The notes under the pieces: generated by a model
What the model saw: only the letters and a program-made list of their open reading frames with translations
What the model was told of the DNA's origin: nothing
Database searches by the model: none
Assembly (NCBI GenBank): GCA_945865375.1
Contig: CAMBEJ010000007.1
Coordinates: 1,870-65,869, forward strand
Direction: 5' to 3'
Source of the DNA: Akkermansia muciniphila
Lineage (GTDB): Bacteria > Verrucomicrobiota > Verrucomicrobiia > Limisphaerales > F1-80-MAGS106
Length of the DNA stretch: 64,000 nucleotides
In this document: positions 2,990 to 54,388 of the stretch, in pieces
Position numbering within the stretch: the first letter of the stretch is position 1
Layout: the number at the start of each line of letters is the position of its first letter
Program-made: the position numbers and the translations under genes

Positions 2990-3068
2990 ACTTAAGTTGG
3001 TAGGGCGTTCTGGGTTCGGGGTGGAAGTGGGGACACGATGTCTTCAGAATCCCGGTGAGGCGAAGCGC

Positions 3069-3719
3069 ATGTCAGACATTTTCCCGAAGTGGACAAACAA
3101 GTTGCCGCTCCAAATTGCGGTGGGTGCCCTATTGATGGGGACGGCCGTTTCGGCGGGCTGCTGGTATTATCTTACCCCGAAGTATACGAGGGTGGGGTAT
3201 CAGCCCATTCAACCTGTGGGTTTTTCCCACGCGACGCACGCCGATCAGTTGGGCATTGACTGCCGTTACTGCCACAACGGAGTCGAAAAGTCTTGGTATT
3301 CGAACGTGCCGGCTGCTGCCACATGCCTCAACTGTCACAACGCGGTGTTGTCCACAGACCCAAGATTGGAGTTAGTCCGGGAGAGCGGGCGGACGGGCAA
3401 GCCCATTCCGTGGGTGCAGGTTCACAAGACGCCTGACTATGTGTATTTCAATCACTCCGTGCATGTGGCTCGCGGTGTGAGCTGTGTGCATTGTCATGGT
3501 CAGGTTAACAAGATGGACGAAGTGCAGCACGCCAAACCACTGAGCATGGCCTTCTGTTTGGAGTGCCATCGGGAACCTGAGAAATTCATACGGCACCCCA
3601 AGGAAGTTTACAATATGGACTGGGCTGTGGCGCCCGAGGTTCAAGCGAATGCGGGGGAGCGGTTTGTCCGTGAGTGGAAGATTGAGGCGTCCCAGAACTG
3701 TTCGGCCTGTCATCGATGA
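3069..3719 (+). CDS. actA: Alternative complex III subunit ActA (pentaheme cytochrome c)
   Basis: Five CxxCH motifs (CRYCH, CLNCH, CVHCH, CLECH, CSACH) and an N-terminal TM anchor. Start moved to MSDIFPKW. 4-nt overlap with actB. Confidence 0.9.
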   Translation: MSDIFPKWTNKLPLQIAVGALLMGTAVSAGCWYYLTPKYTRVGYQPIQPVGFSHATHADQLGIDCRYCHNGVEKSWYSNVPAAATCLNCHNAVLSTDPRLELVRESGRTGKPIPWVQVHKTPDYVYFNHSVHVARGVSCVHCHGQVNKMDEVQHAKPLSMAFCLECHREPEKFIRHPKEVYNMDWAVAPEVQANAGERFVREWKIEASQNCSACHR

Positions 3720-6700
3720 AAACCATTCCCCCTCCCTGCCGCGAGCCGGAAGTCGGCCCAACGTATTGGCGCAGCCTAGATCAACTAGCTGAAACACCCG
3801 AGTTTCGCGCGTGGATGCAGCGTGAGTTCCCTGCGGGCGCTAGCGAGCTCCCCCCGGATTTCGACCGGCGCGACTTCATGAAACTGATGTCGGCGTCTTT
3901 CCTTTTGGCGGGCGTGGGCTTGACGGGTTGTCGCAAACCGGAAGAACACATCTATCCTTTCGGTAAGATGCCGGAAGACTACATCCACGGCGTGCCTCAG
4001 TATTATGCAACCGCCATGCCCACCCGAGGCGGGGCAGTGCCATTGGTGGTCAAATCGCACGAAGGCCGACCAGTGAAGGTGGAGGGAAATCCTCAGCACC
4101 CCGATAGCAATGGCGGCACGGATGTCTTCGCTCAAGCGTCGATTTTGGGGCTTTACGATCCTGACCGGGCCACGCGTTTCGCCAAAGACGGTGTGGGCAT
4201 CCCGAAAGATCAGGCTGCCACCGCGCTGGCCGCGATCGCGTCAGAGGTGTTCTCGAACCGTGGAACTGGCTTGGCGGTGTTGCTTGACCGGTCGACGTCT
4301 CCAACCCGAGCGCGCCTGATAGAGATGATCACGAGGCGATGTCCGGGATCAAAAATTTACTCGTATGAGCCCCTTGACCCCACCACGGGCCAACGGGCCG
4401 TGGCGCTCGCTTTTGGTATTGAGGGGACTTTGTATTACAACCTGGATCGCGCGAAGGTGATTCTTTCGCTCGATTGCGATTTCCTAGGGACCGAAGAGGA
4501 CCCGCATCGATCGATCCGGGGTTTTGCTAAAGGGCGCAAGATTTCCAAGCCGGGTGATGGAATGAACCGGCTTTATGCCGTGGAAGGCTTGATGACCCTG
4601 ACAGGGGCGAATGCGGATCATCGGATGCGTCTGGCTCCTGGATTGGTGGGCCAAGTGGCTGCGCAGATTGCTGTCGAGGTCTTAAAGGAAGCCGGCGGGT
4701 CGGATCCTGGTCTTGTTCGGGCTTTGGAAGCCGCTGCCGGGGGGCCTGTTGCAGGCGTGAACGCCGCTTGGGTCAAAACTTGCGCCAAAGATTTACTGGC
4801 GAACAAAAGTGGCGGGGTGGTGATGGTGGGGCATCGTCAGCCGCTTGGTGTGCATCTGATTGCTCTGGCGATAAACGTGGCGCTCAAGAGCGTTGGCGGC
4901 GTGCTGGAGATCCGAACAGCTCCCCCTCTTGGAGGGGGCACAATTACGGATCTCGCCCAAGCTCTGGACCAACGGCAGGTGACGACTTTGGCCATCGTGG
5001 GTGGAAACCCATCGTACAACGCGCCCGCCGAATTGAATTGGGACAAGGCCGTTGCGAAGGCCACGACGGTGCTTCGCTTGAGTTACTACGAAGACGAGAG
5101 TTTTGCGGCCTCGCACTACCATTTCGCTGCCTCACATTTTCTCGAATCCTGGGGGGACGCACGGACCACCGATGGCACGTTGGTGGCGGTGCAGCCATTG
5201 GTTCAACCTCTGTTCGAAGGGATGACGGATATCGAGTTCCTGGCGACGCTCGCGGGTTTTTCGAGCAGCAATCCCTACGATTTGGTGCGTGATACGGTGA
5301 AAGGTTTGGCGGGCGGTGGCGGTGCCTTTGAGGCCTTGTGGAAAAACTTTCTCCACGACGGTTTTTTGCCCGGAACCACATCGACTCACGCGGCGGTCTC
5401 CCTGAACGGCCCCGCTCTGATCCCTCATTTGCAGGATCTGAAGGGCTTGGCTCCGACTGCCTCGTCTCTTGAAGTCGCTTTCGCGAGGGATTACAGCGTT
5501 GACGACGGACGTTACGCGAACAACGGATGGCTTCAAGAGCTTCCGGATCCCGTGACGAAGATGACATGGGACAACGCCATCTTGATGAGTCGCAAGACGG
5601 CTCGTGAGCTGAGGGTTGAAAATTCGGATGTCATCACAGTCGAGCTGGAGGGGCGAAAAGTGACCGGCCCAGTGTGGACGCAACCTGGGATGGCTGACTT
5701 CACTCTTGGGTTGCAACTCGGCTATGGACGTTCCAAAGGCGGGAGGATTGCCCAGTTCAAGGGCAAGTCAGTCGGTTATAACGCCTATGCCCTCCGAACC
5801 GCAAAAGCTCCCTACATTGCTCGCGGCGCGAAAGTGACGAAGACCGGCGCCACCTATTCGATTTCATGCACGCAGGATCACTGGTCGATGGAGGGGCGTC
5901 CCATTGTTCGCGAGGCGAACCTAGCACAATTTGAAGCCAAGCCTGGTTTTGCGAAGAACATGGATCTGGAGGCGCACGCGGCCCACATCCCGATGGGCAA
6001 GGACGGCAAGCCGGCGGTGATTTACACGCATCCTTATGTCTCGAATCCCGAGCTTAAGAGCGAGGTTCATCAATGGGGGATGTCGATAGATTTGAGCTCG
6101 TGTGTGGGCTGTTCCGCCTGTGTGATTGCGTGCCAAAGCGAGAATAACATTCCCATCGTAGGCAAGGAACAGGTGGCGAAAGGCCGTGAGATGCACTGGA
6201 TCCGCATTGATCGCTACTATGCAGGCGACCTCAAGCTGAGGGCGTTGCAGAAGGACACCGAAACAGACGAAGCACAGCAGTTCAAGGAGTGGATCGATGA
6301 CCCCCAGATGGTCACCCAACCCATGATGTGCCAGCACTGCGAGAACGCCCCTTGCGAGAGCGTGTGTCCTGTGAACGCTACCGTCCATGACGAGGAAGGG
6401 TTGAACGTCATGGCCTACAACCGTTGCGTCGGGACCCGCTACTGCTCGAACAACTGCGCTTACAAGGTCCGTCGGTTTAACTTTTTTGATTATAATAAAC
6501 GCCCTATCGAAAGCCTCTATAAGGGACCGCTGGCAACCCGACCTCGCGATGAATGGGAACTGACGAAGCTGGCCAAAAACCCGAACGTGTCGGTTCGGAT
6601 GCGCGGGGTGATGGAGAAGTGTACGTTCTGCGTGCAGCGGATTGAACAGGCAAAAATCGCCCAAAAGGTGAAGGCCGGCCCGACAGATGCGGTGCGTGTT

Positions 6701-7042
6701 GAGAGGGACGCCATCAAGACCGCGTGCCAGCAGGCCTGCCCTGCGGAGGCTATTGTGTTCGGCAACATCCTCGATCCTGAGTCCGAGGTTTCAAAGCTGA
6801 AACAGCAGCAGCGGGATTATTCGGTCCTCGGATTTTTGGACACACGTCCCCGGCTCACGTACCTGGCAAAAATTCGAAACCCGAACCCGGCGATGCCCGA
6901 TTATTACGAGTATCCCTTGAGCATGAAGGAGTACAGCGACAGCATGGGAAGCCCGTTTGAATCGCCTCACTCGGGCGGAGCTCCGCATGAAGCTGGATCG
7001 CCTGCGCCGGCGCATGGGGCGGCGAAAAAGGGACTGTATTAA
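3716..7042 (+). CDS. actB: ACIII subunit ActB (fused molybdopterin-oxidoreductase-like B1 and 4Fe-4S ferredoxin-like B2)
   Basis: 1108 aa. Tat-like signal [23 protein letters not shown]. Cys clusters [36 protein letters not shown] and CTFCVQR. Confidence 0.92.
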
Positions 7043-8466
7043 TGGACGCCACAGCCGACAGGATGGCGGTCAAGGTGGCGGCGCCCCCCGCTGAGTTGGA
7101 GCGGGAGCCGCTGGTTCTCAAGCACCGGTCGCTCGCCTGGGTTTCTGACACGGTGGCGGGGATTGCGGAGGGCAAGACACCGACTTGGTGGTGGGCTGCT
7201 TTCGTGCCTAGCTTCCTAGGGATGCTCATGTGCTTTCTGATGATCGGCTATCTCTTTTCCACAGGGATAGGCGTTTGGGGGTTGAACAATCCCGTCGGTT
7301 GGGCGTGGGACATTACGAACTTCGTGTTTTGGATCGGGATCGGCCACGCGGGAACGCTGATCTCCGCGGTGCTGTTTCTTCTGCGCCAGAAATGGCGGAC
7401 TTCAATCAACCGTTCTGCGGAGGCCATGACTTTGTTTGCGGTGGTTTGCGCCATGATTTTTCCTGCGATCCATGTGGGGCGCGTCTGGCTTGCGTGGTGG
7501 TTGTTCCCGCTGCCCAACTCGAACGGGATCTGGCCGCAGTTTCGTTCCCCCCTTCTGTGGGATGTGTTCGCGGTCTCGACCTACGGCACCGTGTCCTTGC
7601 TGTTCTGGTATGTGGGGTTGATTCCTGATCTGGCGACCATGCGGGACCGGGCGAAGAGCGCGGTTCGCAAGTTCTGCTATGGATTCTTCGCGCTGGGATG
7701 GACAGGCTCGAACCGGCACTGGAGAAACTATGAGAAAGCCTACCTTCTTCTGGCGGGGCTTTCCACCCCTCTCGTTTTGTCGGTTCATAGTATCGTGTCG
7801 TTCGACTTCGCCGTGTCGCAGGTGCCCGGCTGGCACACGACCATTTTCCCGCCTTATTTTGTTGCGGGTGCCATTTTTTCAGGGTTTGGCATGGTGTTGA
7901 CCCTCCTGATCCCTTTGCGAACGCTTTGCAAGCTGGAGGATGTGATTACGGTGCGGCACGTTGAATTGATGGGAAAGGTCATTCTGGCGACGGGTTCCAT
8001 CGTGGGCTATGCGTATGGGATGGAGTTTTTCATTGCCTGGTATGGTGGCAATCCCTATGAGCTCTACGCCTTCAAGAATCGTGCGTTTGGTCCTTATTGG
8101 TGGGCTTATTGGACGATGATCAGTTGCAACGTGATTTCGCCGCAACTCTTCTGGTTCAAGAAGATCAGAACCAACATCGTCGCTGTGTTTATCCTCTCTA
8201 TCTTCGTGAACATCGGGATGTGGTTCGAGAGGTTTGTCATCATCGTCACGTCGTTGCATCGCGATTATCTTCCCTCGAACTGGGGTTACTTTAAGCCGAC
8301 AATCGTGGATATTCTCACTTTCGTCGGCTCCTTTGGATTGTTCCTCACGCTTTTTTTATTGTTCATAAGGTTCCTTCCGCTCATTGCGATCTCTGAAGTA
8401 AAAGGTGTGACACCATTGGCCGATCCCCACCATCCGCTTGGGGGATCCAAGGGAGGACATCATTGA
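7042..8466 (+). CDS. actC: ACIII subunit ActC (NrfD/PsrC-like quinol-interacting membrane subunit)
   Basis: 474-aa polytopic membrane protein in the canonical position. Its ATG overlaps the actB stop (TAATG). Confidence 0.9.
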
Positions 8467-9008
8467 TGAGTGCTGCCACGTCAAGAACTTACGGGATACT
8501 GGCGGAGTTCGAAACCCCCGCCGATGTGATGCACGCCGCCGAGCAGGTGCGCGATGCCGGATACAAGAAGTGGGATGTGCATACGCCGTTTCCAGTCCAC
8601 GGAATGGATCAGGCGATGGGCTTGAAAAACTCGGTCGTGGGCTATTTCACTTTTGTCGGCGGAGCGACTGGGCTGACTCTCGGGATGAGCATGATCTGGT
8701 TCATGAACAAGTTTGACTACGCGATCGTGGTCGGTGGCAAGCCTCTGTTCAGTCCGCTTTACGCGTTTCCTGTCAGTTATGAACTCACTATTCTGCTGGG
8801 TGCCTTCGCGACTTTGTTCGGCATGTTCGCCCTGAACCGGCTTCCCCGGTTGCATCATCCGCTGTTGAAGCATCCGCGATTTCGCGGGGCGACTCATGAT
8901 AAGTTTTACATTGTGATCGAGTGCGTCGATTCAAATTATTCAGGTGTTGAGACGAAGGCTCTTTTGGAAAAGGCCGGAGGCAAGCACATTGAAATGGTGG
9001 AGGAGTGA
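8463..9008 (+). CDS. actD: ACIII subunit ActD (DUF3341)
   Basis: 181 aa. N-terminal [38 protein letters not shown] is typical of ActD. Two TM helices. 4-nt overlaps on both sides. Confidence 0.88.
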
Positions 9009-9655
9009 CCATGCGTTATTTCCTTTTAGCATTGATGTTGGCGACGGTGGCGGCCGTGGGCGTAGCTGGGTTTCGTGGCACGCTTTCACGCAAGCCCCCC
9101 ATTGAAGTGTTCCCTGACATGGACCGCCAGGCAAAGCTGCGTCCGCAGGTTCCCAATGCGTTTTTCCCGGATGGACGGAGCTCCCAGTTGCCTCCCTCGG
9201 GCACCGTCGCCCGGAGTCGGAAGATGGTGGCGGGCAACGAATCGGTTTACCCTTTCGAGGAGGGTCCGCTGACGACGGGTCGCATCACGGGCACCACAAA
9301 TTTTATCGAGCTCAATCCATTCCCCGTCAATGTCAGTTTCATTGCGAGGGGTCAAGATCGTTATCAGATCACTTGCTCCCCATGTCACGGGGCGCAGGGC
9401 GACGGCAAGGGATCGATCAGCAAGTACGGTTTCGCAACCATCGCAAATCTCCATGACAAGCGCATTTCGACGCAGCCGGATGGCGAACTTTTTAACACGG
9501 TGGGCCATGGCAAGAATACCATGAGCGGTTACGCTTCGAACGTGAGCATCGATGATCGGTGGGCAATTGTAGCGTATCTGAGGGCGTTGCAGCTAAGCCG
9601 AGTGGCCGTCATCGAGGATGTTCCCGCCGATAAACGCGCCCTTTTAAAAAAGTAA
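9005..9655 (+). CDS. actE: ACIII subunit ActE (mono-heme cytochrome c)
   Basis: Single CSPCH motif, an N-terminal hydrophobic anchor and the canonical operon position. Confidence 0.85.
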   Translation: MTMRYFLLALMLATVAAVGVAGFRGTLSRKPPIEVFPDMDRQAKLRPQVPNAFFPDGRSSQLPPSGTVARSRKMVAGNESVYPFEEGPLTTGRITGTTNFIELNPFPVNVSFIARGQDRYQITCSPCHGAQGDGKGSISKYGFATIANLHDKRISTQPDGELFNTVGHGKNTMSGYASNVSIDDRWAIVAYLRALQLSRVAVIEDVPADKRALLKK

Positions 9656-9668
9656 GACCTCACGAGGT

Positions 9669-10883
9669 ATGGCTTCACAAGGATCGATTCAAAATAAAGT
9701 GGCACCCCTGACGATTCCTGGGTGGGTCAAGCAATTGCCACTCCTGATGATGGGAGGCGGGGGCTTGCTGGCGCTCGTGGGCGCATTCGTGGATACCAAG
9801 CAGTTTGGCTATTCGTATCTGGTCGCATTCATGGTCTTCCTGAGCCTCTCCCTGGGCTCGCTTTTCTTGCTTATGATGCATCATCTGTTTGATGCGAATT
9901 GGTCTGTGCCGATCCGGCGTTTCGTGGAGCATCTGGCTTGCCTCTTCCCGGTCTTGGCGATTCTTTTCCTGCCGATCGCCATTCTCGCCAAAACGATTTA
10001 TCCTTGGATGACCCTGGACCCGGCCCTGGATCATTCCCTACACGTCAAGAAGGTGCTCTTCAATCAGGTTTCTTTTTACGTGGTTGCCGCCGCCCTTTTT
10101 GGCATCTGGACGTTTTATGCGCGTGGGTTCAGGAAGGCTTCTTTGGAGCAGGACAAAACGGGTGCTGCCTCCTGCACCCAGACCATGAGGCGTTACGCGG
10201 CCTCGGGTGTTTTCGTGTTCGCATTGAGTCTGACGTTAGCTGTGATCTTCTGGATGAAATCGTTGGAGCACCAATGGTTTTCGACCATGTATGGTGTCTA
10301 CTATTTTGCGTCAAGCGTCTGGCTGGCCCTCGCGACGACCTATGTGATCGCGCTTGTGTTGAAGCGAACAGGTCCGCTGGAACATGTCGTCGGCAATAGG
10401 CAGTTTCACGATATCGGCGTCTTATTTTTAACGTTCACAGTTTTTTATGCCTACATCACTTTCTCGCAATATTTTTTGATCTGGAACGCGGCGATTCCGG
10501 AGGAGACGTTCTGGTATGTCAAGCGCGAGCGCGGTTCGTGGTGGGGCATCGGGATGTTGATTTTATTTGGGCATTTCGTCGTTCCTTTCCTGTTGTTGTT
10601 GCGCATCGACTTCAAGCTGAACGCGGCCGTGATGATTCCCCTGTGCGTTTGGGCGTGGATGATGCATTTCTGTGACATGTCCTTCAATATCATGCCGGTG
10701 CTGCATCCTGAGGGTTTTAAATTGAATTGGATCGATGTCGCGTGCATGGCTTTTTTTGCCGGCGTCCTGTCCAAGGTTTTTCTTAAGGACCTGAATTCGC
10801 ACCCCGTTTACCCTCAGCGCGATCCTCGGATTGCCGAAACGATGGGAGTTTACGTGGAGCCAGCCGGATCCCATTCCAAATAG
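9669..10883 (+). CDS. actF: ACIII subunit ActF (second NrfD-like membrane subunit)
   Basis: 404-aa polytopic membrane protein following actE. Confidence 0.85.
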   Translation: MASQGSIQNKVAPLTIPGWVKQLPLLMMGGGGLLALVGAFVDTKQFGYSYLVAFMVFLSLSLGSLFLLMMHHLFDANWSVPIRRFVEHLACLFPVLAILFLPIAILAKTIYPWMTLDPALDHSLHVKKVLFNQVSFYVVAAALFGIWTFYARGFRKASLEQDKTGAASCTQTMRRYAASGVFVFALSLTLAVIFWMKSLEHQWFSTMYGVYYFASSVWLALATTYVIALVLKRTGPLEHVVGNRQFHDIGVLFLTFTVFYAYITFSQYFLIWNAAIPEETFWYVKRERGSWWGIGMLILFGHFVVPFLLLLRIDFKLNAAVMIPLCVWAWMMHFCDMSFNIMPVLHPEGFKLNWIDVACMAFFAGVLSKVFLKDLNSHPVYPQRDPRIAETMGVYVEPAGSHSK

Positions 10884-10929
10884 GGCATTAATGCTTTTGC
10901 CATAAAGGTTTACAATCACCAGTAAAATC

Positions 10930-11286
10930 ATGAACGCGTCGCCTTCTTCCAAGTTTTCGTGGGGAGTGTATCTGCTGGGCGGGATGGGCGTCCTCTTGAT
11001 CATGGCCGCCGTGGTTCAGATTGCGATTCGAGAAATGCAACCTCTGCCAGTGGGTCAGCGGCGTGCCGACGAGCGTCGGAAAAATATGGCCGACCTCCGC
11101 CAATCCAACATGGACGTCCTAAACAACTACGCTTGGATGGATCAGCCCAAAGGCGTTGTGCGCATTCCCATCGAGCAGGCGATGGAGTTGATGCGGCAGG
11201 AGTGGCAAAATCCTGCTGACGGGCGCAAGAAGCTTCTGGCGCGTATAGAAAAAGCGACAGCCGTGGCTCCGAATGCGTACGAGTAG
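10930..11286 (+). CDS. Small single-TM protein, possible ACIII/oxidase accessory subunit
   Basis: 118 aa with one TM (VYLLGGMGVLLIMAAVVQIAI) and a soluble tail (GVVRIPIEQAMELM). Position between actF and the oxidase-like genes. Function not recognised. Confidence 0.5.
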   Translation: MNASPSSKFSWGVYLLGGMGVLLIMAAVVQIAIREMQPLPVGQRRADERRKNMADLRQSNMDVLNNYAWMDQPKGVVRIPIEQAMELMRQEWQNPADGRKKLLARIEKATAVAPNAYE

Positions 11287-11312
11287 ACTCGTCCATTGAG
11301 TTCGCGCTCGCA

Positions 11313-12794
11313 ATGATGACAACGACCGCAACAGAGATCGTTTCGACGCCGGACGACCGCTCCGGAGAGCACGACCGTGTTCTGCCGGGTGAGATTGACG
11401 CAAGCTGCCGGTGGACAGTTCTGGCACTTTTCGTGGGTGCGTTGTTTTGGCTCGTTGCCGCCAGTGGTCTGCAAGCTTTGTCGTCGGTGAAACTGCTGAT
11501 GCCGGGGCTCTTGGCACCCTGGGAGTTTCTGACTTACGGGCGGCTCGAGGGAGCGGTGTCCTGCGGTTTGGTTTTTGGTTTCGCGATTCCGGCCTTGATG
11601 GCTCTTTTGACCTGGATTCAATGCAGGCTGGGAGGTCAAAGCCTAGCTGGCTCACTCGGCTTTTGGATCTTTGGTTCGATGTGGAACCTGGGGGTCTTAG
11701 GCTCGGTCCTCGGAATTCTTGCGGGGGATGGCAGTGGCCTCGCGTGGTTTGAGCTTCCACTTTACGGCGCGGCACCGATGGCGGCGGCTTACATCGTTGG
11801 AGCGGGCGTGCTTTTGCTGAATGTGAAATTGCGCGCCGTTCGGGAGATGCATGTGTCGCAGTGGTTTCTCCTCCTCGCGGTGATATGGTTCGGTTGGGCA
11901 TTTACCGTGGCGGTTCTTTTGAATCAGACGCTGTCTTCTGGATTGGTCCATTTGTTGGTGGGCTACTGGTTCAAACAACAAATGTTCTTCATGACCCTGC
12001 TGCCGGGTGCTCTGGCTGTCGTGTTTTATGTCCTGCCCAAAGTGGCTGAGGCTCCTGTTCGTCCGCGCTCTCTGGTTTTGTTCGCATTTTGGACATTCGT
12101 GTTCATAGGCCCATGGGGAGGGATTCCCCAGTCGGCGCCTCTGCCGGCCTGGATGGTCAGCGTGGGGGTGGTTGCCAGCACCCTGGTGTTGGTGCCAATT
12201 TTGGCAACGATCCTCACCGTTTATGAAACGCTGGGTGGAAACTGTGGCTCATTGAGAAAAACGAGCGAAGGATCTCTTGTCATGGGCTCGGTATTGGCTC
12301 TAGCTCTATTTGCAGTCATGAATTGGGTTCGGAATTGGTCCGGCGTTGCGGGAGTTGTCGAGTTGAGCGTCTTTTCCAAGGGAATGTCCCTCCTTTTGGT
12401 GCTCGGTGTTTGCGGCTTGGGCGTCCTGGGTGGCATCCATCACGTGGTTCCCAAACTGACCCACTCCCAGTGGCTCCAGCCTTCGTGGGCCCGAATCCAT
12501 GGCACCGCGTCCATCCTCAGCGTGGCGGCGGTCGTCGCGGGCTTGATTCTGGCCGGAATGTTCCAGGGATTGCAAAGTAACAAGCTCGGTTCCACGGCCT
12601 CTGAAATTGCGGGGGCAGCACGGCCGATGCTCGCTTTGTCTGCCTTGGGTTGCCTGAGTTATTTCCTGGCTCAATCGGCTCTTTTCGGGGCCGTGTTGTG
12701 GCAGAGCGCGCTGGCTTGTCGCGCCTGCTGTGTTCCGTGCCTTGTTGACTGGGCAAAGGATCAGAGGGTCGAGAAGGCGGAGGTTGGCCGATGA
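11313..12794 (+). CDS. CcoN-like (cbb3 oxidase subunit I-like) polytopic membrane protein that apparently lacks the heme/CuB histidine ligands
   Basis: 493 aa, about 12 TM. Colinear similarity to CcoN blocks (YGRL..., VFYVLPK, IHHVVPK). 4-nt overlap with the CcoO-like gene. See the finding for the ligand analysis. Confidence 0.65.
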   Translation: MMTTTATEIVSTPDDRSGEHDRVLPGEIDASCRWTVLALFVGALFWLVAASGLQALSSVKLLMPGLLAPWEFLTYGRLEGAVSCGLVFGFAIPALMALLTWIQCRLGGQSLAGSLGFWIFGSMWNLGVLGSVLGILAGDGSGLAWFELPLYGAAPMAAAYIVGAGVLLLNVKLRAVREMHVSQWFLLLAVIWFGWAFTVAVLLNQTLSSGLVHLLVGYWFKQQMFFMTLLPGALAVVFYVLPKVAEAPVRPRSLVLFAFWTFVFIGPWGGIPQSAPLPAWMVSVGVVASTLVLVPILATILTVYETLGGNCGSLRKTSEGSLVMGSVLALALFAVMNWVRNWSGVAGVVELSVFSKGMSLLLVLGVCGLGVLGGIHHVVPKLTHSQWLQPSWARIHGTASILSVAAVVAGLILAGMFQGLQSNKLGSTASEIAGAARPMLALSALGCLSYFLAQSALFGAVLWQSALACRACCVPCLVDWAKDQRVEKAEVGR

Positions 12795-13516
12795 AACACG
12801 GTCCTTTTATCCTCGTGGGCTTGCTCCTGGCGTCCGCTTCCTCTTGGTGCGGCATGGTTTTGGCCCCGTTGGTTCAATGGCGCGATCTTCAGCCGGAGAA
12901 GGACGAGGGCACTGCCACTTACTATCCGTCAAGGAGGTCGGGCTTGGCGGAGCAGGGGAGCGAGGTTTATCGTGCCATGGGTTGTTTCCATTGTCATACC
13001 CAGATCATCCGGGGCAGGGGGCTCGGAATGGATTTGGAGAAGGGTTTGGGGACCCGTCGGAGCGTTGCCATTGATTTCCTGTACGATCATACCGTGATGC
13101 CGGGCGAAACACGGCTGGGGCCTGATCTCGCGAATTTCGGGGTTCGTTCCAGGAAGGCCGGTGACACGAATGGGGCCTTGGCGCGGCGCTCTATTCTTGT
13201 GAAACTGTTTGACCCTCGTTCTGTGAATTCGGCCTCCATCATGCCTTCCTATGCGCATCTTTTCGAGGTCCGCAAGATCAGTCGAACACCCTCGCCGGAG
13301 GCCCTTGTTTTGTCTCCAGGAGCCGGGGCCCAATCCGGATTCGAAGTCGTGCCCAAACCTGAAGCGATAGCGCTCGCAGCGTACTTAACCAGTTTGGATT
13401 CTCAGAAGTCAGTCTTTGTCGCACCCGTCCCCAAGCCCGTTAAAAAGGGGGGCGAAAAGGGAACCAATGCGTCCCCGTCTGTGGTTGTGGAAACCCACTC
13501 AGCACCCCCTAAATGA
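12791..13516 (+). CDS. ccoO: CcoO-like mono-heme cytochrome c subunit of a cbb3-type oxidase
   Basis: N-terminal TM. GSEVYRAMGCFHCHTQIIRG, RLGPDLANFGVR and SIMPSY blocks match CcoO/FixO. Confidence 0.8.
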   Translation: MKHGPFILVGLLLASASSWCGMVLAPLVQWRDLQPEKDEGTATYYPSRRSGLAEQGSEVYRAMGCFHCHTQIIRGRGLGMDLEKGLGTRRSVAIDFLYDHTVMPGETRLGPDLANFGVRSRKAGDTNGALARRSILVKLFDPRSVNSASIMPSYAHLFEVRKISRTPSPEALVLSPGAGAQSGFEVVPKPEAIALAAYLTSLDSQKSVFVAPVPKPVKKGGEKGTNASPSVVVETHSAPPK

Positions 13517-14172
13517 AGGGTCGAGATTTGTCCGTGACCATGAAAAGTTCCGATGATAATAGGCCACGAGAAGGCCGTCCGCGTGATACCGAGCCTCGCC
13601 TAGAGGCTGGCTCTTCGCCTCAACTCTACTGGTTGATGGCTCTGCTCGGCGTGTTGGCGGTATGGGGCGATCACTATCTTGTGAACCGCGCAGCGGACTA
13701 TCATCCCCAGGTTTATACGCCGTATTTATCCTTTTATGAAGTGGACGCGCTGAATCCCAAGTCCCCAGGAGACGTGCTGGCCGCGAAGGGTCGGTTGATT
13801 TATCAAAACTACTGTCAGCCGTGTCACCAGCCGAACGGTGGCGGACTCCCGGGTCAGTTCCCTCCTTTAGCGGGTTCCGATTGGGTTGCCGTCCCCGGCC
13901 CTAACAGGATCATCCGCATCGTCCTGAACGGCTTGGCGGGCCCGGTCACGGTGAATGGGGCCGTGTTTAGCAACGCGATGTTCGATTTCGGGAAGAGCCT
14001 CACGGATAATGATATCGCGGCGGTGCTCACGTTCGTCCGGAGCAACGCGGAGTGGAATAATTCGTCGGCGCCTGTCACCCCAGAGCAAGTGGCTGCGATT
14101 CGCAAGAAAACCTCTGACCGGGGCGAACCCTGGTCCGCTGAGGAATTGCTGAAGGTTCCAGATAGCGATTGA
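13513..14172 (+). CDS. Membrane-anchored class I cytochrome c (mono-heme, in the CcoP position)
   Basis: 219 aa with one TM, a single CQPCH motif and FPPLAGSDWV. Overlaps the ccoO-like stop by 4 nt. Confidence 0.75.
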   Translation: MKGRDLSVTMKSSDDNRPREGRPRDTEPRLEAGSSPQLYWLMALLGVLAVWGDHYLVNRAADYHPQVYTPYLSFYEVDALNPKSPGDVLAAKGRLIYQNYCQPCHQPNGGGLPGQFPPLAGSDWVAVPGPNRIIRIVLNGLAGPVTVNGAVFSNAMFDFGKSLTDNDIAAVLTFVRSNAEWNNSSAPVTPEQVAAIRKKTSDRGEPWSAEELLKVPDSD

Positions 14173-14196
14173 TTTCCGTTGAGTTCAAGGGATCCC

Positions 14197-15540
14197 ATGC
14201 TGGAAGCACCTTCACAACGACTGGGTCCAGCGAGGGAGAGCTCCCCGCTCAAAGCTCTCGACTACTCTGTGGTGCAGCAATGCATGCACTGCGGTTTGTG
14301 CCTTCCAACCTGTCCGACGTACGACGTCACAAAGCTGGAGAAGAACAGTCCTCGCGGACGCATTGCCCTGATGCGTTCAATCGCCGATGGAGAGCTCGAA
14401 CCCGGCAAAGCGTTCGCTGACGAGATGTATTTTTGCCTGGGCTGTCTGGCCTGCATGACGGCCTGTCCCGCAGGCGTGAATTACGCGGAGCTTTTTGAGC
14501 ATGCGCGCGCCGAGGCTGAGCAAAGCCAGGCCCTGGATAGTGGGTGGCGGAGGTTTTTGCGTGGTTTGACTCTGCGCTGGCTGTTCGGGGACTTGAGCCG
14601 ATTGCAGTTGCTTGGCCGGGCCATCCGGTTCTACCAGCAGCTTGGGCTTGAGGACTTTGTGCGCAAGTCTGGCATCATGCGACTCATGCCTGCACGGTTG
14701 CAAGGGCTGGAGTCCATGTCCCCCCGTATTTGTTCCGAGTTCTCCGAAGACTTGATCGCTCTACGGACGAGAGCTCATGGGGAGAAACGCCACCGGGTTG
14801 CGGTCTTGACGGGGTGCGCTCAGGATTTGATTTTCAGCGATGTCAATCGCGACACGGTGGAGGTGCTTGCACAAAACGGGTGCGAGGTCATCACGCCGCG
14901 CGACCAGGCTTGTTGTGGATCGTTGCACGCACACAACGGGGAACTGGAGCTGGCGCGGGCGCTCGCACGCAAACAGTTGGACATGGTTCCCCCTGAGGAA
15001 TTTGACGCCATTATCACGAATGCGGCCGGGTGTGGATCGCATTTGAAGCACTATTCGAGTCTGCTGAAAGACGATCCGGCTTATGCGCGCCGGGCGGCCC
15101 TGTGGGACGCGAAGGTGAAAGACATCCACGAGTGGCTCGTGGAGATAGGGATCAGGAGGCCCTCTCCATCCGGGGCGCCGGAACAAACGGTCACTTACCA
15201 CGAGGCGTGTCACTTGTGTCATGGCCAGAAAATCACGGCACAACCTCGTGAGCTGTTGAAGTCGATTCCTGGATTGAATCTCGTCGAGATGGCGGAGAGC
15301 ACGTGGTGCTGTGGTAGCGCCGGCATCTACAACATCATCCAGCCTGAGATGGCAGGAGACCTGTTAACCCGCAAGTTGAACCATGTGCGATCGACCGGCG
15401 CCAACATCGTGGCGACAGGCAACCCTGGATGCCTCCTCCACATGGTGAATGGAGCGCGGAAGCAGGGCTTGAATGTGCGATTAGCGCATCCTGTGACGTT
15501 GCTCGCCGAGGCCTATCGCAGGGAGATCTTGAAGGGTTGA
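14197..15540 (+). CDS. GlcF/GlpC/HdrD-like (Fe-S)-binding oxidoreductase with two CCG domains
   Basis: CMHCGLCLPTCP and CLGCLACMTACP ferredoxin motifs, then CCGS...CCGSAG cysteine-rich repeats. ATG at 14197 is preferred to the TTG at 14179. Confidence 0.8.
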   Translation: MLEAPSQRLGPARESSPLKALDYSVVQQCMHCGLCLPTCPTYDVTKLEKNSPRGRIALMRSIADGELEPGKAFADEMYFCLGCLACMTACPAGVNYAELFEHARAEAEQSQALDSGWRRFLRGLTLRWLFGDLSRLQLLGRAIRFYQQLGLEDFVRKSGIMRLMPARLQGLESMSPRICSEFSEDLIALRTRAHGEKRHRVAVLTGCAQDLIFSDVNRDTVEVLAQNGCEVITPRDQACCGSLHAHNGELELARALARKQLDMVPPEEFDAIITNAAGCGSHLKHYSSLLKDDPAYARRAALWDAKVKDIHEWLVEIGIRRPSPSGAPEQTVTYHEACHLCHGQKITAQPRELLKSIPGLNLVEMAESTWCCGSAGIYNIIQPEMAGDLLTRKLNHVRSTGANIVATGNPGCLLHMVNGARKQGLNVRLAHPVTLLAEAYRREILKG

Positions 15541-22978: not shown

Positions 22979-25900
22979 TCAGTGCTCCGTCAGGAACTTG
23001 AGCAATTCGATTTGTTCTCTTTCGGGCAGCGCTTCAAGCAACCCTTCGGGCATCAGCGATTTCTCGCTTGTGGCTCGCCTTACGGCGTCGGTCTTGGCCA
23101 CCAAGACCTGGTCGGCGATCGTCCGCAGGGTGATCGAGCTGGGGGTTTCCGAAACCAGCAATCCTGACAACACTTCGCCCTTGGAAGTTTCGATCGTGGT
23201 CATCTGAAAGTCGGTTCCAATCACGGCGTCGGGGTCGACGATGTTTTCCAGGTAATAGCGGATGCCATGGGCTCCCGCGCCTGTGAGCTCGGGTCCGATG
23301 CGGTTGCCGTCGTCGCCAAGCTTATGGCACGAGGCACAGATTTTTTGAAAGTGTTTGCGGCCCTCGCGCCCGTCGTACGCCCAGAGTGGCGCTTCATCAA
23401 AAACTTTTTCGAGCCTTGTAATCTGGGTTTGTCTTTCCGCCGGAGTCTTCAGGATTCGGCCCCACGTCTTGGTGAGCCGACTATCGACTTCCGGATTGTG
23501 CAACTGACCCAACTGGCGCACGTGATAAGCGGTCAGTTGGTCCCGTTTTAACGCCCCTTTCGCGACGGCTTCCAACAGGGGCACCGCCAGGGAAGCCCGG
23601 CTTGTCAGGGCATTGATGGCGGCAGTCTTTTCAGCCGGCGCGAAGGATTGGAATCGGTCCAGGATCGCCGGAGTGATGGATGCATCGTCGAACCGTCCCA
23701 AGAGCGTGAGTGCGCGACCCCGATAGGATGGTTCGTCCAGCAGCTTGATGAACGCTGAGAGCGAGTTCAGGTCGGGGCTGCGGCCTAGAACGTCGAGGGC
23801 GTGGCGTCGCGCGTCCTTGTCGGCTCCTGGATCCAACAGTTCCTTTCTGAGCCTCGCAAACACGGAAGTATCGCCGAACACCGAAGCGAGCCGCTCCGCC
23901 TGCCGTCGTACTCGCGGGTCTTCGCTGGCATAGAGTATGGGGGCGACACTTTTCCATCCCGAGGGTTCGGGGGTATTGACGCGACTTTCCATTGCCAGAG
24001 AGAGGCCAGCCAACCTGCGGCGTTGAGTTTCGCCCGTGGTTTTTCCGATCAAGATTATCACCTGATTCAGAGATATGGCTTTCAGAGTGGCGGCATACCA
24101 GTAAATCCAATCGGCCAACTGTGGAATCGGAGTGATGGCCGCGAGATCCATCGCGCGTGCCGGATTCTTTTCCATGCGTGGTCCGAGCCCGTGCCAGAGG
24201 AGCAGGGGCAGGTTGCGGTCTTCTCTGTCCTCGTGCCTGGAAGCTAGGCCTTCGATCAGATCCCAGGCTGGTTTCTCGGGGATCCGTTGGATGGCTGAGG
24301 CAAGATAGCGGCGCACGATGGGCGATGGGTCCACTCTGGCAAGGCTGACCAGACGGTCGATGACAGCGCCCGTGATGGGGGCCCGTTCAGTCGCCAATTG
24401 AACCGACCACGCGCGCAGCACTTCATCTTTGTCGTTCAGAAGTCGCGGCAAAATATCGCTGGAGACGCCGATCCCATGGAGGGTCCAGAGAGTGTTCAAC
24501 CTAGTGGCGCGATGGGCGTCGGTGGAGAGCTGGGTTCGCAGTCCGGAAACGGCCTCTTTATCGATGGGCTTTGCACTGGCACGTTCCATCAACACACGCC
24601 GGGCAGTCCTGGGATACCATTGGTTTTTATGGGACATGAGCTTGACGAGATCCAGGTCGTTCAACGCGGTGAGGTTCACTCTTGCCGGTTTATAGCCTGC
24701 CGCATGCTCAAGCCTGTAGATGCGCCCATTGGCCCGGTCCCATCGCTCGGAGATCGGGTTGTGACAATGCTGTTGATCGTACCAGTCGATCACATAGACG
24801 GCACCGTCGGGACCGTATTGGAGGTCGATGGCGACGTATTTTGGGTCCGTGCAAAAGAAGACATCCTTTCCTGCGTGGACGGTGTCGTAGCCTGAGCCGA
24901 GGGGCTTATTGATCTGCTGGTTGATCTGGTGGCCGCCCAGGTTGTGTGTGAACAGATGACCCCTGTAATCATCCGGCCAATTGTCTCCGAGGTAGATCAT
25001 GGTGCCGACATGCGAATGGCCGCCGTAGATTGCGTCACTCCCTTTTGGTCCGGCACCCCCGGCCCCATGGTCATAGCGTGCTGAGGCGAGCAGAAAGTTT
25101 TGGTAGTTAGGAAAGTCACTCGAGGGATCGGAGACGATAAAGGGCGGGTAATTGGCATTGGCTTGGTTCCAGAACTGGCCGCCTTGGAGCACATGAGTGG
25201 TGAGTCCACGTCCCCAGTAACTGCGGCAGTGGGTCATGAACAACTGGCCGGTTTCGTCATAGTCCAAGCCCCAGGGATTGCTGCCCCCGTGAGCGAACAC
25301 TTCAAACTCATGACGCAACGGGTGGTAGCGCCAGACGCCCGCGCGCAGTTCGGTTCGTTGTTCCGTGGCCGTGCCTGGCTTGCCGATGCGGGCGAAGTTG
25401 AACACCCCCTGGTTGCCGTAAAGCCAGCCATCGGGACCCCAGGTGAAACTGTTCAAACATTCGTGTGTGTCCTGGTATCCAAACCCTTCCAATAACACCT
25501 GCGGGCTCGAATCAGGCACGTCGTCACCATCCTTGTCAGGAATGAACAGGAGCTCGGGTGCCGCTCCGATCCACACGCCGCCGAACCCCACTTCGATGCC
25601 TGACACAAGATTCAGACCCGTGGTGAACACCTTACGGGATTCGAAACGACCATCGCCATCCGCATCCTCGAAGATCACGACCCTGTCGAGGCCCTTTCCG
25701 GGAGGCTGCTTTTGAGGGTAGCTGTAGGCTTCGGCCACCCAGAGACGTCCGCGGGCGTCGATGGCAAACGCGACGGGCTGCCGCACCTCGGGTTCGGAGG
25801 CGACAAGCACGGCGCGAAAGCCCTCTGGCAAATACATCTGCGCGAGCGTTTTCTCGGCTGGCGTGCGCGCTTCCGACGCCATAGGGTTCGGCTTGAGATC

Positions 25901-26041
25901 ACGGAGCACCGGGCTTGATTGCAACCGCTTCACATCGGGCAAAGGTTCTTCGGCGCGCACTGCTGCGCAAGCGAGGGCAAGGGCAAGACCGATGCGTCCG
26001 GCAGATAAGGCCATTGGTCGAGTGAGCTGATGGGATCGCAT
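22979..26041 (-). CDS. PVC-type membrane-bound dehydrogenase-domain / HEAT-repeat / heme-binding CxxCH protein
   Basis: Signal peptide, beta-propeller-like N-terminal half, HEAT-like middle and a C-terminal cytochrome c (KICASCHKLGDDGNRIGPELTG). Start moved to MRSHQLTRPMALS. Confidence 0.8.
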   Translation of the reverse strand: MRSHQLTRPMALSAGRIGLALALACAAVRAEEPLPDVKRLQSSPVLRDLKPNPMASEARTPAEKTLAQMYLPEGFRAVLVASEPEVRQPVAFAIDARGRLWVAEAYSYPQKQPPGKGLDRVVIFEDADGDGRFESRKVFTTGLNLVSGIEVGFGGVWIGAAPELLFIPDKDGDDVPDSSPQVLLEGFGYQDTHECLNSFTWGPDGWLYGNQGVFNFARIGKPGTATEQRTELRAGVWRYHPLRHEFEVFAHGGSNPWGLDYDETGQLFMTHCRSYWGRGLTTHVLQGGQFWNQANANYPPFIVSDPSSDFPNYQNFLLASARYDHGAGGAGPKGSDAIYGGHSHVGTMIYLGDNWPDDYRGHLFTHNLGGHQINQQINKPLGSGYDTVHAGKDVFFCTDPKYVAIDLQYGPDGAVYVIDWYDQQHCHNPISERWDRANGRIYRLEHAAGYKPARVNLTALNDLDLVKLMSHKNQWYPRTARRVLMERASAKPIDKEAVSGLRTQLSTDAHRATRLNTLWTLHGIGVSSDILPRLLNDKDEVLRAWSVQLATERAPITGAVIDRLVSLARVDPSPIVRRYLASAIQRIPEKPAWDLIEGLASRHEDREDRNLPLLLWHGLGPRMEKNPARAMDLAAITPIPQLADWIYWYAATLKAISLNQVIILIGKTTGETQRRRLAGLSLAMESRVNTPEPSGWKSVAPILYASEDPRVRRQAERLASVFGDTSVFARLRKELLDPGADKDARRHALDVLGRSPDLNSLSAFIKLLDEPSYRGRALTLLGRFDDASITPAILDRFQSFAPAEKTAAINALTSRASLAVPLLEAVAKGALKRDQLTAYHVRQLGQLHNPEVDSRLTKTWGRILKTPAERQTQITRLEKVFDEAPLWAYDGREGRKHFQKICASCHKLGDDGNRIGPELTGAGAHGIRYYLENIVDPDAVIGTDFQMTTIETSKGEVLSGLLVSETPSSITLRTIADQVLVAKTDAVRRATSEKSLMPEGLLEALPEREQIELLKFLTEH

Positions 26042-26194
26042 AGAATTTAAAAATCCCAAACCTTCAGGAATGTTGAGGCTGAGGCCAGACGCGGAAACCA
26101 AGGCAGAGCAGGGGTTCAACCAGCCAGGAAACCGCGTCCTGACTTTGGGGGCACACCCAAGCCTCGTGATCGTGACTGTGGCTGAGCTTTCGTC

Positions 26195-29976: not shown

Positions 29977-31458
29977 TCAGGGAAGGTTCGTGGTGCCCAT
30001 GAGGTAGCGATCGCACTCCCGCGCCGCTCCCCGCCCTTCGTTGAACGCCCAAACGACCAAACTCTGACCGCGGCGCGCATCCCCAGCGGCAAAGACACCC
30101 TTGAGGTTCGTCTGGTAACTACCGTGATCTGCCTTGGCATTCGAACGGGCATCGCGTTCGACGCCGAGTTGCTCCAACAACGGTTGGTCAGGTCCGAGAA
30201 ACCCCATCGCGAGCAGGACGATTTGGGTCTCATGAACACGCTCGGTACCGGGGATTTCTTGGGGAAAAAACTGGCCTTTCTCGTTTTTTTTCCACTCGAT
30301 TTGGACAAGGCGGATGGCCTTCACACGACCTTCAGGGTCGGATTCAAATCCTTTTGCGGTTGTCATGTAAACGCGAGGGTCCGCGCCGTATTTGGCAGCG
30401 GCTTCCTCCTGCCCGTAATCCATTTTGTAAACCTTCGGCCATTCAGGCCACGGATTGTCCTGGGCGCGGTTCATCGGAGGTTTCGGAAGGATTTCGACCT
30501 GGAGCAGGGATTTGCAACCGTGTCGCATGGAGGTGCCGACACAATCGGTGCCGGTATCGCCGCCGCCGATGATCACCACATCCTTGCCTTCGGCGGAAAT
30601 GAAATCCGCAGTGGCGTGCCCATCCAGGAGACTCTTGGTGTTCGCCTGGAGAAATTCCATGGCAAAGTGAATGCCGCGCAAGGATCGCCCCTCGATTGGG
30701 AGGTCGCGCGGTTTGGTGGCGCCGGTGCAAAGGACGACCGCGTCGAACTCCTTTAGCAACCGTTCAGCAGCATAAGTTTTGCCCACCTCGGTATCTGTCA
30801 GGAATGTCACTCCTTCTTTGGTGAGGATGTCAACCCGGCGTTGGACGAGAGATTTGTCGAGCTTCATGTTGGGGATGCCGTACATCAGCAACCCGCCGAT
30901 GCGGTCGGTCCGCTCGAACACCGTCACGCTGTGTCCCACCTTGTTCAACTGAGCGGCCGCGCACAGCCCAGAAGGGCCCGAGCCGACGACGGCCACCTTT
31001 TTCCCGGTTCGAATCGACGGGGCATCGACTGTGATCCAGCCTTCATCCCAGCCTCGATCCGCAATCGAGCATTCGATGTTCTTGATTGTGACGGGCGGGC
31101 TGTTCAAGCCCAGGACGCAGGACCCTTCACATGGGGCAGGGCACACGCGGCCAGTGAACTCGGGGAAGTTGTTGGTTTTGTGAAGCCGGTAGAGGGCCTC
31201 GTGCCATAGCCCTCGGTAGACCAGATCGTTCCACTCCGGAATGAGATTGTTGATGGGGCATCCAGATGCCATCCCGCCCAGCAAGTTTCCAGTGTGACAG
31301 AACGGGATGCCGCAGTCCATGCAGCGCGCCCCTTGCTCCCGGAGTTTGGCTTCGTCCAAGTGGAGGTGGAACTCCTGCCAATCTTTGATGCGCTCTTGAG
31401 CGGACCTGTCGAGTGGCAGCTCTCGGAGGTAATCGATGAATCCAGTAGGCTTACCCAT
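29977..31458 (-). CDS. gltD: Glutamate synthase (NADPH) small subunit
   Basis: 493 aa. [10 protein letters not shown]..., Fe-S Cys motifs, [11 protein letters not shown] and the GDTGTDC FAD/NAD motifs. Confidence 0.95.
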
Positions 31459-31512
31459 TGTGGTTCAGATTAGAGGTCTCTTCTTGTTGGTAATCGGTTT
31501 GGTTGTGGTCGA

Positions 31513-50185: not shown

Positions 50186-50188
50186 AGA

Positions 50189-54082: not shown

Positions 54083-54141
54083 TGTAATCAGCAAGACAGA
54101 CCCTAAGCAAATATCGGGCCGAGACCATTCAAACATGCTGG

Positions 54142-54366
54142 TTAGCAGTAACCCTGTCTGAGGAGCCAATGCACCGTCAGGATGAGTCCGATCGAGAGAA
54201 GCGACATGACCCAAGCGGAGCTCGCCAGATAGGAAGCGACTAGGATGAGAACTCCGCCGACCATCGGCACGAATGACTGTTGCTTCTTTCCATAGATGAA
54301 ATAGCCAAATCCCACCGAACCCCATATTAAGGAGGCAAACAGGAAGCTCGAGTCGGAGAGTTCCAT
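54142..54366 (-). CDS. Small integral membrane protein (74 aa, 2-3 TM)
   Basis: LIWGSVGFGYFIYGKKQQSFVPMVGGVLILVASY pattern of a conserved small membrane-protein family. Conflicts with, and is preferred over, the N-terminal extension of the 50189..54373 track ORF. Confidence 0.6.
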   Translation of the reverse strand: MELSDSSFLFASLIWGSVGFGYFIYGKKQQSFVPMVGGVLILVASYLASSAWVMSLLSIGLILTVHWLLRQGYC

Positions 54367-54388
54367 GAGTCAACAGGGCGTCATTGCT

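Follow-up and report, generated by a model that had tools for sequence, protein, structure and literature searches.

Eleven close-set genes, several of which overlap, were found at 2,997–15,540 on the + strand of a 64,000-nucleotide stretch of contig CAMBEJ010000007.1 (assembly GCA_945865375.1, Verrucomicrobiota); the whole of this 64-kb stretch is referred to as the window. The cluster opens with the full six-subunit set of alternative complex III (ACIII) in the order ActABCDEF, continues with the gene of a small membrane protein (p118) and with three genes resembling those of a cbb3-type cytochrome oxidase, and closes with the gene of a GlcF/HdrD-like Fe-S protein. The first gene of the oxidase-like module (11,313–12,794, +) encodes a protein of 493 amino acids (aa), called psN here, which has the fold of the catalytic subunit CcoN without its haem or CuB ligands; public gene calls place the start at 11,316, which gives a 492-aa product. 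The second gene (12,791–13,516, +) encodes psO, a CcoO/FixO-like membrane-anchored monohaem cytochrome c of 241 aa with a CFHCH haem site and a Met ligand in the motif SIMPSY. The third (13,513–14,172, +) stands in the position of CcoP and encodes a membrane-anchored monohaem class I cytochrome c of 219 aa (CQPCH), which matches Pfam Cytochrome_CBB3 and Cytochrom_C. An initial annotation of this DNA had described the 493-aa product as an intact open reading frame (ORF) colinear with CcoN, with all haem and CuB histidines replaced, and had pointed out the 4-nt overlap with the next gene and the haem sites CFHCH and CQPCH of the two neighbours. All these observations were borne out, and a second 4-nt overlap was detected between the psO and the cytochrome c genes; both overlaps are of the ATGA type.

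The psN sequence scored 66.4 bits against Pfam COX1, over the cut-off of 34.8, and 57.7 bits against the NCBIfam ccoN equivalog (TIGR00780), far under the cut-off of 583.15. In a phmmer search of the PDB, residues 41–426 were aligned with CcoN of Pseudomonas stutzeri (3mk7_A). In that protein, haem b is ligated by H60 and H347, haem b3 by H345, and CuB by H207, H257, and H258, and the cross-linked tyrosine Y251 completes the set (P. stutzeri numbering). In psN, the haem b ligands are replaced by V82 and L360, the haem b3 ligand by M358, the CuB ligands by Q222, P272, and Q273, respectively, and the tyrosine by G266. The same columns were obtained from MAFFT alignments containing the P. stutzeri sequence, and the structure comparison also agreed, that is, three independent alignment methods were concordant. 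For the GPHH block, the manual register proposed in the initial annotation was off by a few residues, while the ligand loss reported there stood. The entire protein has only seven histidines, as had been counted before (positions 20, 180, 213, 376, 377, 384, and 396), none of which falls on a ligand column, and profile alignment, previously named as a way to overturn the claim, restored no ligand His. The AlphaFold2 model of psN was confident (predicted local distance difference test, pLDDT, 91.4; predicted template modelling score, pTM, 0.90). In the Foldseek comparison seven cbb3 CcoN chains ranked first (TM 0.82–0.88, root mean square deviation, rmsd, 2.2–2.6 Å), over NorB and the A- and B-family subunits, and the top match was 3mk7_A (TM 0.82/0.86, rmsd 2.4 Å), which speaks against membership in an unrelated transporter family, an outcome that had also been envisaged. 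In the model, psN keeps the 12-helix fold of haem-copper oxidase subunit I of the CcoN type. The substitutions leave the protein without the known means of binding haem b, haem b3, or CuB, and at the level of the sequence the loss of catalysis is well supported.

The same condition was found throughout the family. The first protein search yielded 34 psN relatives of 28–100% identity, among which none had the ligand set and no invariant His was seen, and a profile search with the alignment of these 34 sequences added just two members from the protein database. When loci were scanned with one genome taken per species, 80 were recovered, almost all from Verrucomicrobiota (Limisphaerales, Pedosphaera, and "subdivision 3"), and the gene order ActA–F, small protein, psN, psO, cytochrome c was present at every locus of sufficient length (about 90 loci in total). 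The ligand set was missing from all 83 distinct psN orthologues of the related loci. Nearly all of them were full-length ORFs of 460–530 aa, 28–82% identical, and a few copies from metagenome-assembled genomes (MAGs) were truncated (e.g., at loci L064 and L055). A profile search against 1.84 billion cluster representatives (50%-identity clusters) gave 753 matches at E ≤ 1e-30. In a set of 184 family sequences (183 from the database and that of the window), 118 had none of the six histidines, 50 had one, and three had all six. In a comparison within the same clade, the six histidines were 100% conserved in 119 ligand-complete relatives and absent from 241 ligand-less ones, and such a distribution indicates that the ligands were not lost by chance.

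The fate of the other positions was followed in the same two groups. Of 172 columns that are at least 90% conserved in the 119 ligand-complete proteins, 39 are still at least 80% conserved in the 241 ligand-less ones. The lost columns include all ligands and R57, together with T215, Y223, S240, Y317, and H337, which we take, from work on 3MK7, to line the proton pathway; the latter five are now mostly G, F, A, F, and Q, respectively. The invariant glycines G211, G324, and G349 have given way to bulky residues (F226, N337, and L362 in the window), which suggests that the haem pockets of psN are filled and not empty. Retained columns are chiefly Gly, Pro, and Trp, along with the short motifs YGR, PxPAW, and VPK. 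At the Y251 column the ligand-less family has Gly in 67% and Ala in 21% of the sequences and never Tyr, Q, L, R, M, or V occupies the H345 column, Ala predominates at H60, and none of the ligand columns has a conserved residue type. After the last helix, psN has a Cys-rich C-terminal tail (CRACCVPC, residues 468–475, 12,714–12,737 of the window). At least two Cys were present in the last 45 residues of 113 of the 241 ligand-less proteins, as against 2 of 118 ligand-complete ones, and CxxC or CC motifs occurred in the tail of 88 and 1 of them, respectively; judged from these counts, the tail is a gain of the ligand-less branch.

Selection on the gene was estimated from pairwise Nei–Gojobori comparisons. 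The ratio of non-synonymous to synonymous substitution rates (dN/dS) of psN was 0.09–0.22 in five clean pairs, one of them being the window and L092, whose psN is 82% identical (0.14). In the five pairs the values were 0.01–0.13 for the ACIII core subunits and 0.07–0.26 for psO. Two further pairs, L056–L067 (1.57) and L014–L064 (0.63), were discarded owing to codon mis-registration or a truncated MAG copy. The psN gene is the fastest-evolving one of the operon (45% identity to its L009 counterpart, compared with 91% for ActC and 75% for ActF). From these sequence comparisons, selection on psN is relaxed yet clearly purifying, in agreement with the earlier proposal that the gene is maintained and not decaying.

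The haem sites of the partner cytochromes are preserved. The psO protein scored 56.3 bits against Pfam FixO (cut-off 29.6) and 58.6 bits against the NCBIfam equivalog, under its cut-off of 200.65, and CcoO chains of the PDB matched it at E values from 1e-9 to 1e-7. Its CFHCH and SIMPSY motifs line up with the haem motifs of Rhodobacter capsulatus CcoO, and the CxxCH and Met-Pro motifs were kept in all orthologues with a recovered N-terminus. The cytochrome c encoded by the third gene, which has an N-terminal membrane helix and a domain resembling Thermus c552 and the cytochrome domain of NirK, retains CxxCH in 73 of 73 orthologues. Five natural psN–psO fusions were detected among the cluster representatives, and each of them combines a ligand-less N-terminal half with a C-terminal half containing CxxCH.

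Ligand-complete relatives point to the origin of the module. The best profile matches contain three ligand-complete proteins, one of which is CcoN of the planctomycete Telmatocola sphagniphila, whose locus reads ACIII, small protein, FixS (ccoS), ligand-complete CcoN, FixO, cytochrome c, and P-type ATPase (ccoI). The locus of Opitutaceae bacterium TAV1 comprises ACIII, a 111-aa protein, an 81-aa ccoS-like protein, CcoN, FixO, and cytochrome c and is devoid of ccoI. In the Opitutales-type clade, collected by a search seeded with the protein P0080, 117 of 122 sequences, including that of TAV1, were ligand-complete. P0080 itself (L091: 5,791–7,251, an Opitutales MAG) is 50–57% identical to ligand-complete relatives and is not preceded by a ccoS-like gene; it keeps H60, H207, H345, and H347 and has lost Y251, H257, and H258, and it may be a transitional form or stem from a loss of its own. 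Elsewhere in this clade, four members have one or two substitutions of the Tyr or the CuB histidines, and one more lacks most ligands. In a "Verrucomicrobia subdivision 3" MAG (L094: 9,786–15,654), a stand-alone ligand-complete operon was found with the genes of a ccoS-like protein, CcoN, FixO, cytochrome c, and ccoI and with no ACIII; true and dead versions of CcoN may thus coexist within the "subdivision 3" group. Maturation genes were searched for by tblastn, for which two ccoI proteins and the ccoS-like proteins of Telmatocola and TAV1 served as queries. A ccoS-like gene was present at all three ligand-complete loci and ccoI at two of them (both genes at L090 and L094, the ccoS-like gene only at L093), while neither was detected in the window, at the roughly 90 ligand-less loci, or at the P0080 locus in a search that covered about 10 kb around each locus and not the rest of the genomes. 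In a neighbour-joining tree, which is a crude distance tree, the ligand-complete forms were basal and the clade of the window lay on the longest branches. The ACIII–cbb3 operon of the Opitutaceae/Telmatocola type is the probable ancestral state. P0080 argues that degeneration occurred more than once, with at least one separate, later loss, and no single loss event is claimed here. For Verrucomicrobia, a position of ACIII genes next to those of a "cbb3 oxidase" is on record (Refojo et al., 2010, as cited in PMC8498564; PMC6688271), and the ACIII genes of Methylacidiphilum are reported to adjoin a cbb3 oxidase (PMC8498564; PMC6688271).

One locus suggests where the electrons may go. At L095 (10,001–19,977), ACIII and a psN-type module are directly followed by the genes of a 274-aa copper-binding-like protein, COX1, COX3, COX4, COX2, and CtaA. 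The locus is of the Verrucomicrobiales type, its 90% cluster includes a protein of a Prosthecobacter sp. MAG, its module is ligand-deficient, and the COX2 protein has the CuA motif and no cytochrome c domain. This order, module and then aa3 oxidase, is the best support for a hand-over of electrons to a separate oxidase.

Taking these results together, we consider it probable, with considerable room for doubt, that psN is a non-catalytic relic of an ancestral ACIII–cbb3 unit, kept as a membrane platform for two haem c carriers. The ancestor would have been an operon joining ACIII, a quinol:cytochrome c oxidoreductase, to a working cbb3 oxidase. In the lineage of the window and in most of the sampled Verrucomicrobiota, psN would then have lost haem b, haem b3, CuB, the polar residues of the proton pathway, and the haem-packing glycines, while the 12-helix fold, psO, and the second membrane-anchored monohaem cytochrome c would have stayed under purifying selection. 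In the solved ACIII structures, quinol is oxidised by ACIII and the electrons pass through ActB and ActA to ActE. psO would dock on the psN platform as CcoO does on CcoN, and together with the anchored c552-like cytochrome it would hold two c-type haems beside ActE, the exit haem of ACIII. As psN would be unable to reduce O2, it is proposed that these two c-type haems pass the electrons on to a separate terminal oxidase, which in the organism of the window would lie outside the 64 kb. The role of psN as a scaffold and electron-exit platform is what we infer from this arrangement. A bolder version, which we put forward tentatively, is that the emptied CcoN shell acts as an adaptor physically coupling ACIII to another oxidase (aa3, to judge from the order at L095), with the CcoO-like and c552-like haems as the wire and a newly functional Cys-rich cytoplasmic tail.

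The module shares with the cbb3 oxidase of P. stutzeri (CcoN/CcoO/CcoP, 3MK7) the predicted 12-helix fold of psN, a CcoO/FixO homologue with a haem c site encoded next to it, a membrane-anchored cytochrome c in the CcoP position, and the translational coupling of the genes. It differs in that psN is devoid of the haem b, haem b3, and CuB ligands, the cross-link Tyr, and the proton-pathway residues, by which the module, as read from its sequences, could not be an oxidase; moreover, the third subunit is monohaem and c552-like whereas CcoP is dihaem, and ccoS, ccoI, ccoG, and ccoQ are missing from the locus of the window. The operons of TAV1 and Telmatocola have the same ActABCDEF, small membrane protein, CcoN, CcoO, and monohaem cytochrome c, and the proteins are homologous throughout. 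However, their CcoN retains all six histidines and the Tyr and is preceded by a ccoS-like gene, and in Telmatocola ccoI follows; the window has lost all of these. In Flavobacterium johnsoniae, ACIII is joined genetically and physically to a haem-copper oxidase in the ACIII–caa3 supercomplex, and built-in c-type haems carry the electrons without a soluble carrier (Sun et al., 2018, as cited in PMC8498564; PMC8407424). By analogy, that supercomplex may serve as a working model for the relation of the module to ACIII, although its partner is an active A-family oxidase, whereas the partner in the window would be an empty shell. The module also resembles pseudoenzymes, dead paralogues kept as scaffolds: the catalytic residues have gone, and fold, gene position, and purifying selection persist.

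Several points weigh against a platform that passes electrons on. The aa3 operon follows the module at only one of about 95 loci, no terminal oxidase is encoded in the 64-kb window, and a true oxidase carried alongside psN is presumed here. The haem of canonical CcoO faces haem b of CcoN, a partner that the psO haem would lack for passing its electrons onward. The association of psN, psO, and the cytochrome c with each other or with ACIII is deduced from their genes, and in the AlphaFold2 model of the psN–psO fusion P0074 the psO half had a pLDDT of 35–58 over much of its length. The basal placement of the ligand-complete forms may reflect long-branch attraction, and the much faster divergence of psN compared with its neighbours indicates that the constraint on it is weak. 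Some of these points would fit the main rival, a purely structural relic, in which ACIII had come to depend on its former oxidase partner for assembly or stability by constructive neutral evolution and psN, perhaps along with psO and the cytochrome c, would have no physiologically important share in electron flow. Such a relic would account for the conserved position next to ACIII, the weak purifying selection on psN and its fast divergence, the lack of a nearby encoded acceptor at most loci, and a psO haem that would be a dead end under the canonical cbb3 geometry (3MK7). Nevertheless, we regard it as rather unlikely, as a role in structure only does not predict the strict retention, in more than 70 orthologues, of CxxCH and Met in psO and of CxxCH in the cytochrome c, and at L095 an aa3 oxidase whose COX2 has no cytochrome c domain lies directly downstream.

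The oxidase fold might also have acquired a new function, for example as an ion or proton path coupled to ACIII, as a binding site for a lipid or quinone where the haem pockets were, or in thiol chemistry through the Cys tail, in the clade of the window perhaps together with the HdrD/GlcF-like protein. The enrichment of the tail in the ligand-less family and the CCG-domain Fe-S protein encoded directly downstream in the clade of the window, with a dN/dS of 0.07, would agree with this, but roughly half of the family has no such tail, most of its members lack the GlcF-like gene, A, F, or G stands where the canonical proton pathway has polar residues, and the invariant columns of the psN family hold no new polar or metal-binding residue; we consider such a function improbable. 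An enzyme that is still redox-active, reducing O2, NO, or another substrate with haems or metals held by unconventional ligands (Met, Gln, Lys, or Tyr), is more doubtful still and would be a surprise. In its favour, haem-copper relatives with altered CuB sites have been reported (the proposed NO dismutase is one), many members of the family have Gln at the H345 and H347 columns, and a few retain one to four histidines. Against these stand the lack of a conserved residue type at the ligand columns, the bulky residues in place of the haem-packing glycines, the failure to find ccoS and ccoI at the ligand-less loci, and the V, Q, P, Q, M, and L that the window protein has at the six sites. Least credible of all is a decaying pseudogene or a misalignment artefact. 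The very low ccoN equivalog score (57.7 against 583), the rank of psN as the fastest-evolving gene of the operon, and the truncated MAG copies (L064 and L055) could be read in this way, yet full-length ORFs in nearly all 83 orthologues (28–82% identical), dN/dS values of 0.09–0.22 in the five clean pairs, a confident AlphaFold2 model, the concurrence of three independent alignment methods on the ligand columns, and the retained translational coupling to the next gene all contradict it.

In the openly searchable literature, which leaves subscription journals out of reach, no description of a ligand-less haem-copper oxidase subunit I (CcoN) was found, nor one of such a paralogue at ACIII, in accordance with what the initial annotation had stated. 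The ACIII–cbb3 operon is already known, and a version of its catalytic subunit that has no cofactors, yet is widespread and under selection, appears to be undescribed. IMG and NCBI label the proteins of the psN family "cytochrome c oxidase cbb3-type subunit I". With hundreds of relatives conserving the ligand-less form, a "cbb3 oxidase" annotation in Verrucomicrobiota would often stand for something other than an oxidase. CcoN is widely used in metagenome surveys as a marker of microaerobic, high-affinity respiration, and soil and freshwater are rich in Verrucomicrobiota. Should the ACIII-linked copy prove not to be an oxidase, inferences on high-affinity respiration in the phylum are overstated, and a check of the seven columns would correct them. 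If the adaptor version is true, much of the "cbb3 oxidase" signal of Verrucomicrobiota in genomes and metagenomes would not stand for high-affinity O2 respiration, and a three-part respiratory supercomplex would be built around a dead enzyme. The module would be a natural case in which an oxidase core has lost all cofactors while its cytochrome c subunits and the link to ACIII persist, and it opens the question of what an oxidase contributes to a supercomplex beyond catalysis. The coexistence of functional (Opitutaceae, Telmatocola), partly degenerate (P0080), and ligand-less forms makes the path from enzyme to pseudoenzyme reconstructable, and with Prosthecobacter, and possibly Pedosphaera and Limisphaera, there are relatives in culture, by which the proposal is directly testable.

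The ACIII genes that precede the module were assigned as follows. ActA (2,997–3,719, +), the multihaem cytochrome c subunit, matches the Pfam Cytochrome_C7 and c3 families and has a QrcA-like NCBIfam match, and it is syntenic at every locus of sufficient length. ActB (3,716–7,042, +), the large Fe-S subunit of 1,108 aa with Fer4_7 and Fer4_11 domains, has the same position across all related loci. ActC (7,042–8,466, +), the NrfD-type quinol-binding membrane subunit (Pfam NrfD, E 2.2e-23), is 55–93% identical across the loci; its closest relatives come from Limisphaerales and Verrucomicrobia MAGs (85–88% identity), and domains typical of the Planctomycetes–Verrucomicrobia–Chlamydiae (PVC) group are present among the proteins of the window. 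ActD (8,463–9,008, +) was identified by Pfam PF11821 (E 1.6e-64), and ActE (9,005–9,655, +), the monohaem cytochrome c, by its match to PDB 6f0k_E (E 1.2e-36); the CxxCH of ActE is kept in 79 of 79 orthologues. ActF (9,669–10,883, +), the second NrfD-like membrane subunit, matches PDB 6f0k_F (E 2.9e-66). Between ActF and psN lies the gene of p118 (10,930–11,286, +), a single-helix membrane protein of 118 aa, for which searches of Pfam, NCBIfam, and PDB gave no match. A gene of this kind is placed between ActF and the CcoN-like gene at nearly all loci. Because homologues of p118 sit at the same place in Opitutaceae TAV1 (111 aa, E 5e-15) and in an Opitutales MAG (98 aa, E 1e-12), p118 can be assigned to the ancestral operon, possibly as a subunit of ACIII, or a linker, that has so far escaped description.

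The GlcF/HdrD-like protein (14,179–15,540, +) has two CCG domains and a ferredoxin domain (Pfam CCG, E 2.8e-32), and it scored 255 bits against NCBIfam GlcF, under the cut-off of 333. Its ORF starts either 7 nt past the cytochrome c gene (TTG) or 25 nt past it at the first ATG, so the close spacing noted in the initial annotation holds. The gene was present only in the window, L092, L004/L005, and L009 and was missing from the other loci. Within this clade the protein is 80–91% identical, with a dN/dS of 0.07 (one pair), and no GlcD or GlcE partner was found nearby. The gene is a clade-specific addition outside the conserved module. The scan for promoters and terminators gave no signal above the shuffled expectation.

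The ACIII operon is immediately preceded, on the other strand, by a gene for myo-inositol oxygenase (1,511–2,677, −; Pfam MIOX, E 8.6e-112); as this enzyme is O2-dependent, the organism meets O2, which implies an aerobic or microaerobic lifestyle. A 1,046-aa protein encoded at 22,979–26,119 (−) has DUF7133, HEAT repeats, and a C-terminal cytochrome c motif, an architecture common in Planctomycetes and Verrucomicrobia, and it could be another periplasmic electron donor or acceptor. Glutamate synthase is encoded at 29,977–36,126 (−), with a large subunit of 1,537 aa (GATase_2, Glu_syn_central, Glu_synthase, GXGXG) and a small subunit of 493 aa (Fer4_20, Pyr_redox_2), both of which are ordinary housekeeping genes. 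Two adjacent giant genes at 43,196–54,373 (−) encode products of 2,329 and 1,394 aa with CotH kinase-like and multiple lamin-tail domains, the larger one additionally with Fn3-associated and CHB_HEX_C domains; these are probably surface proteins.

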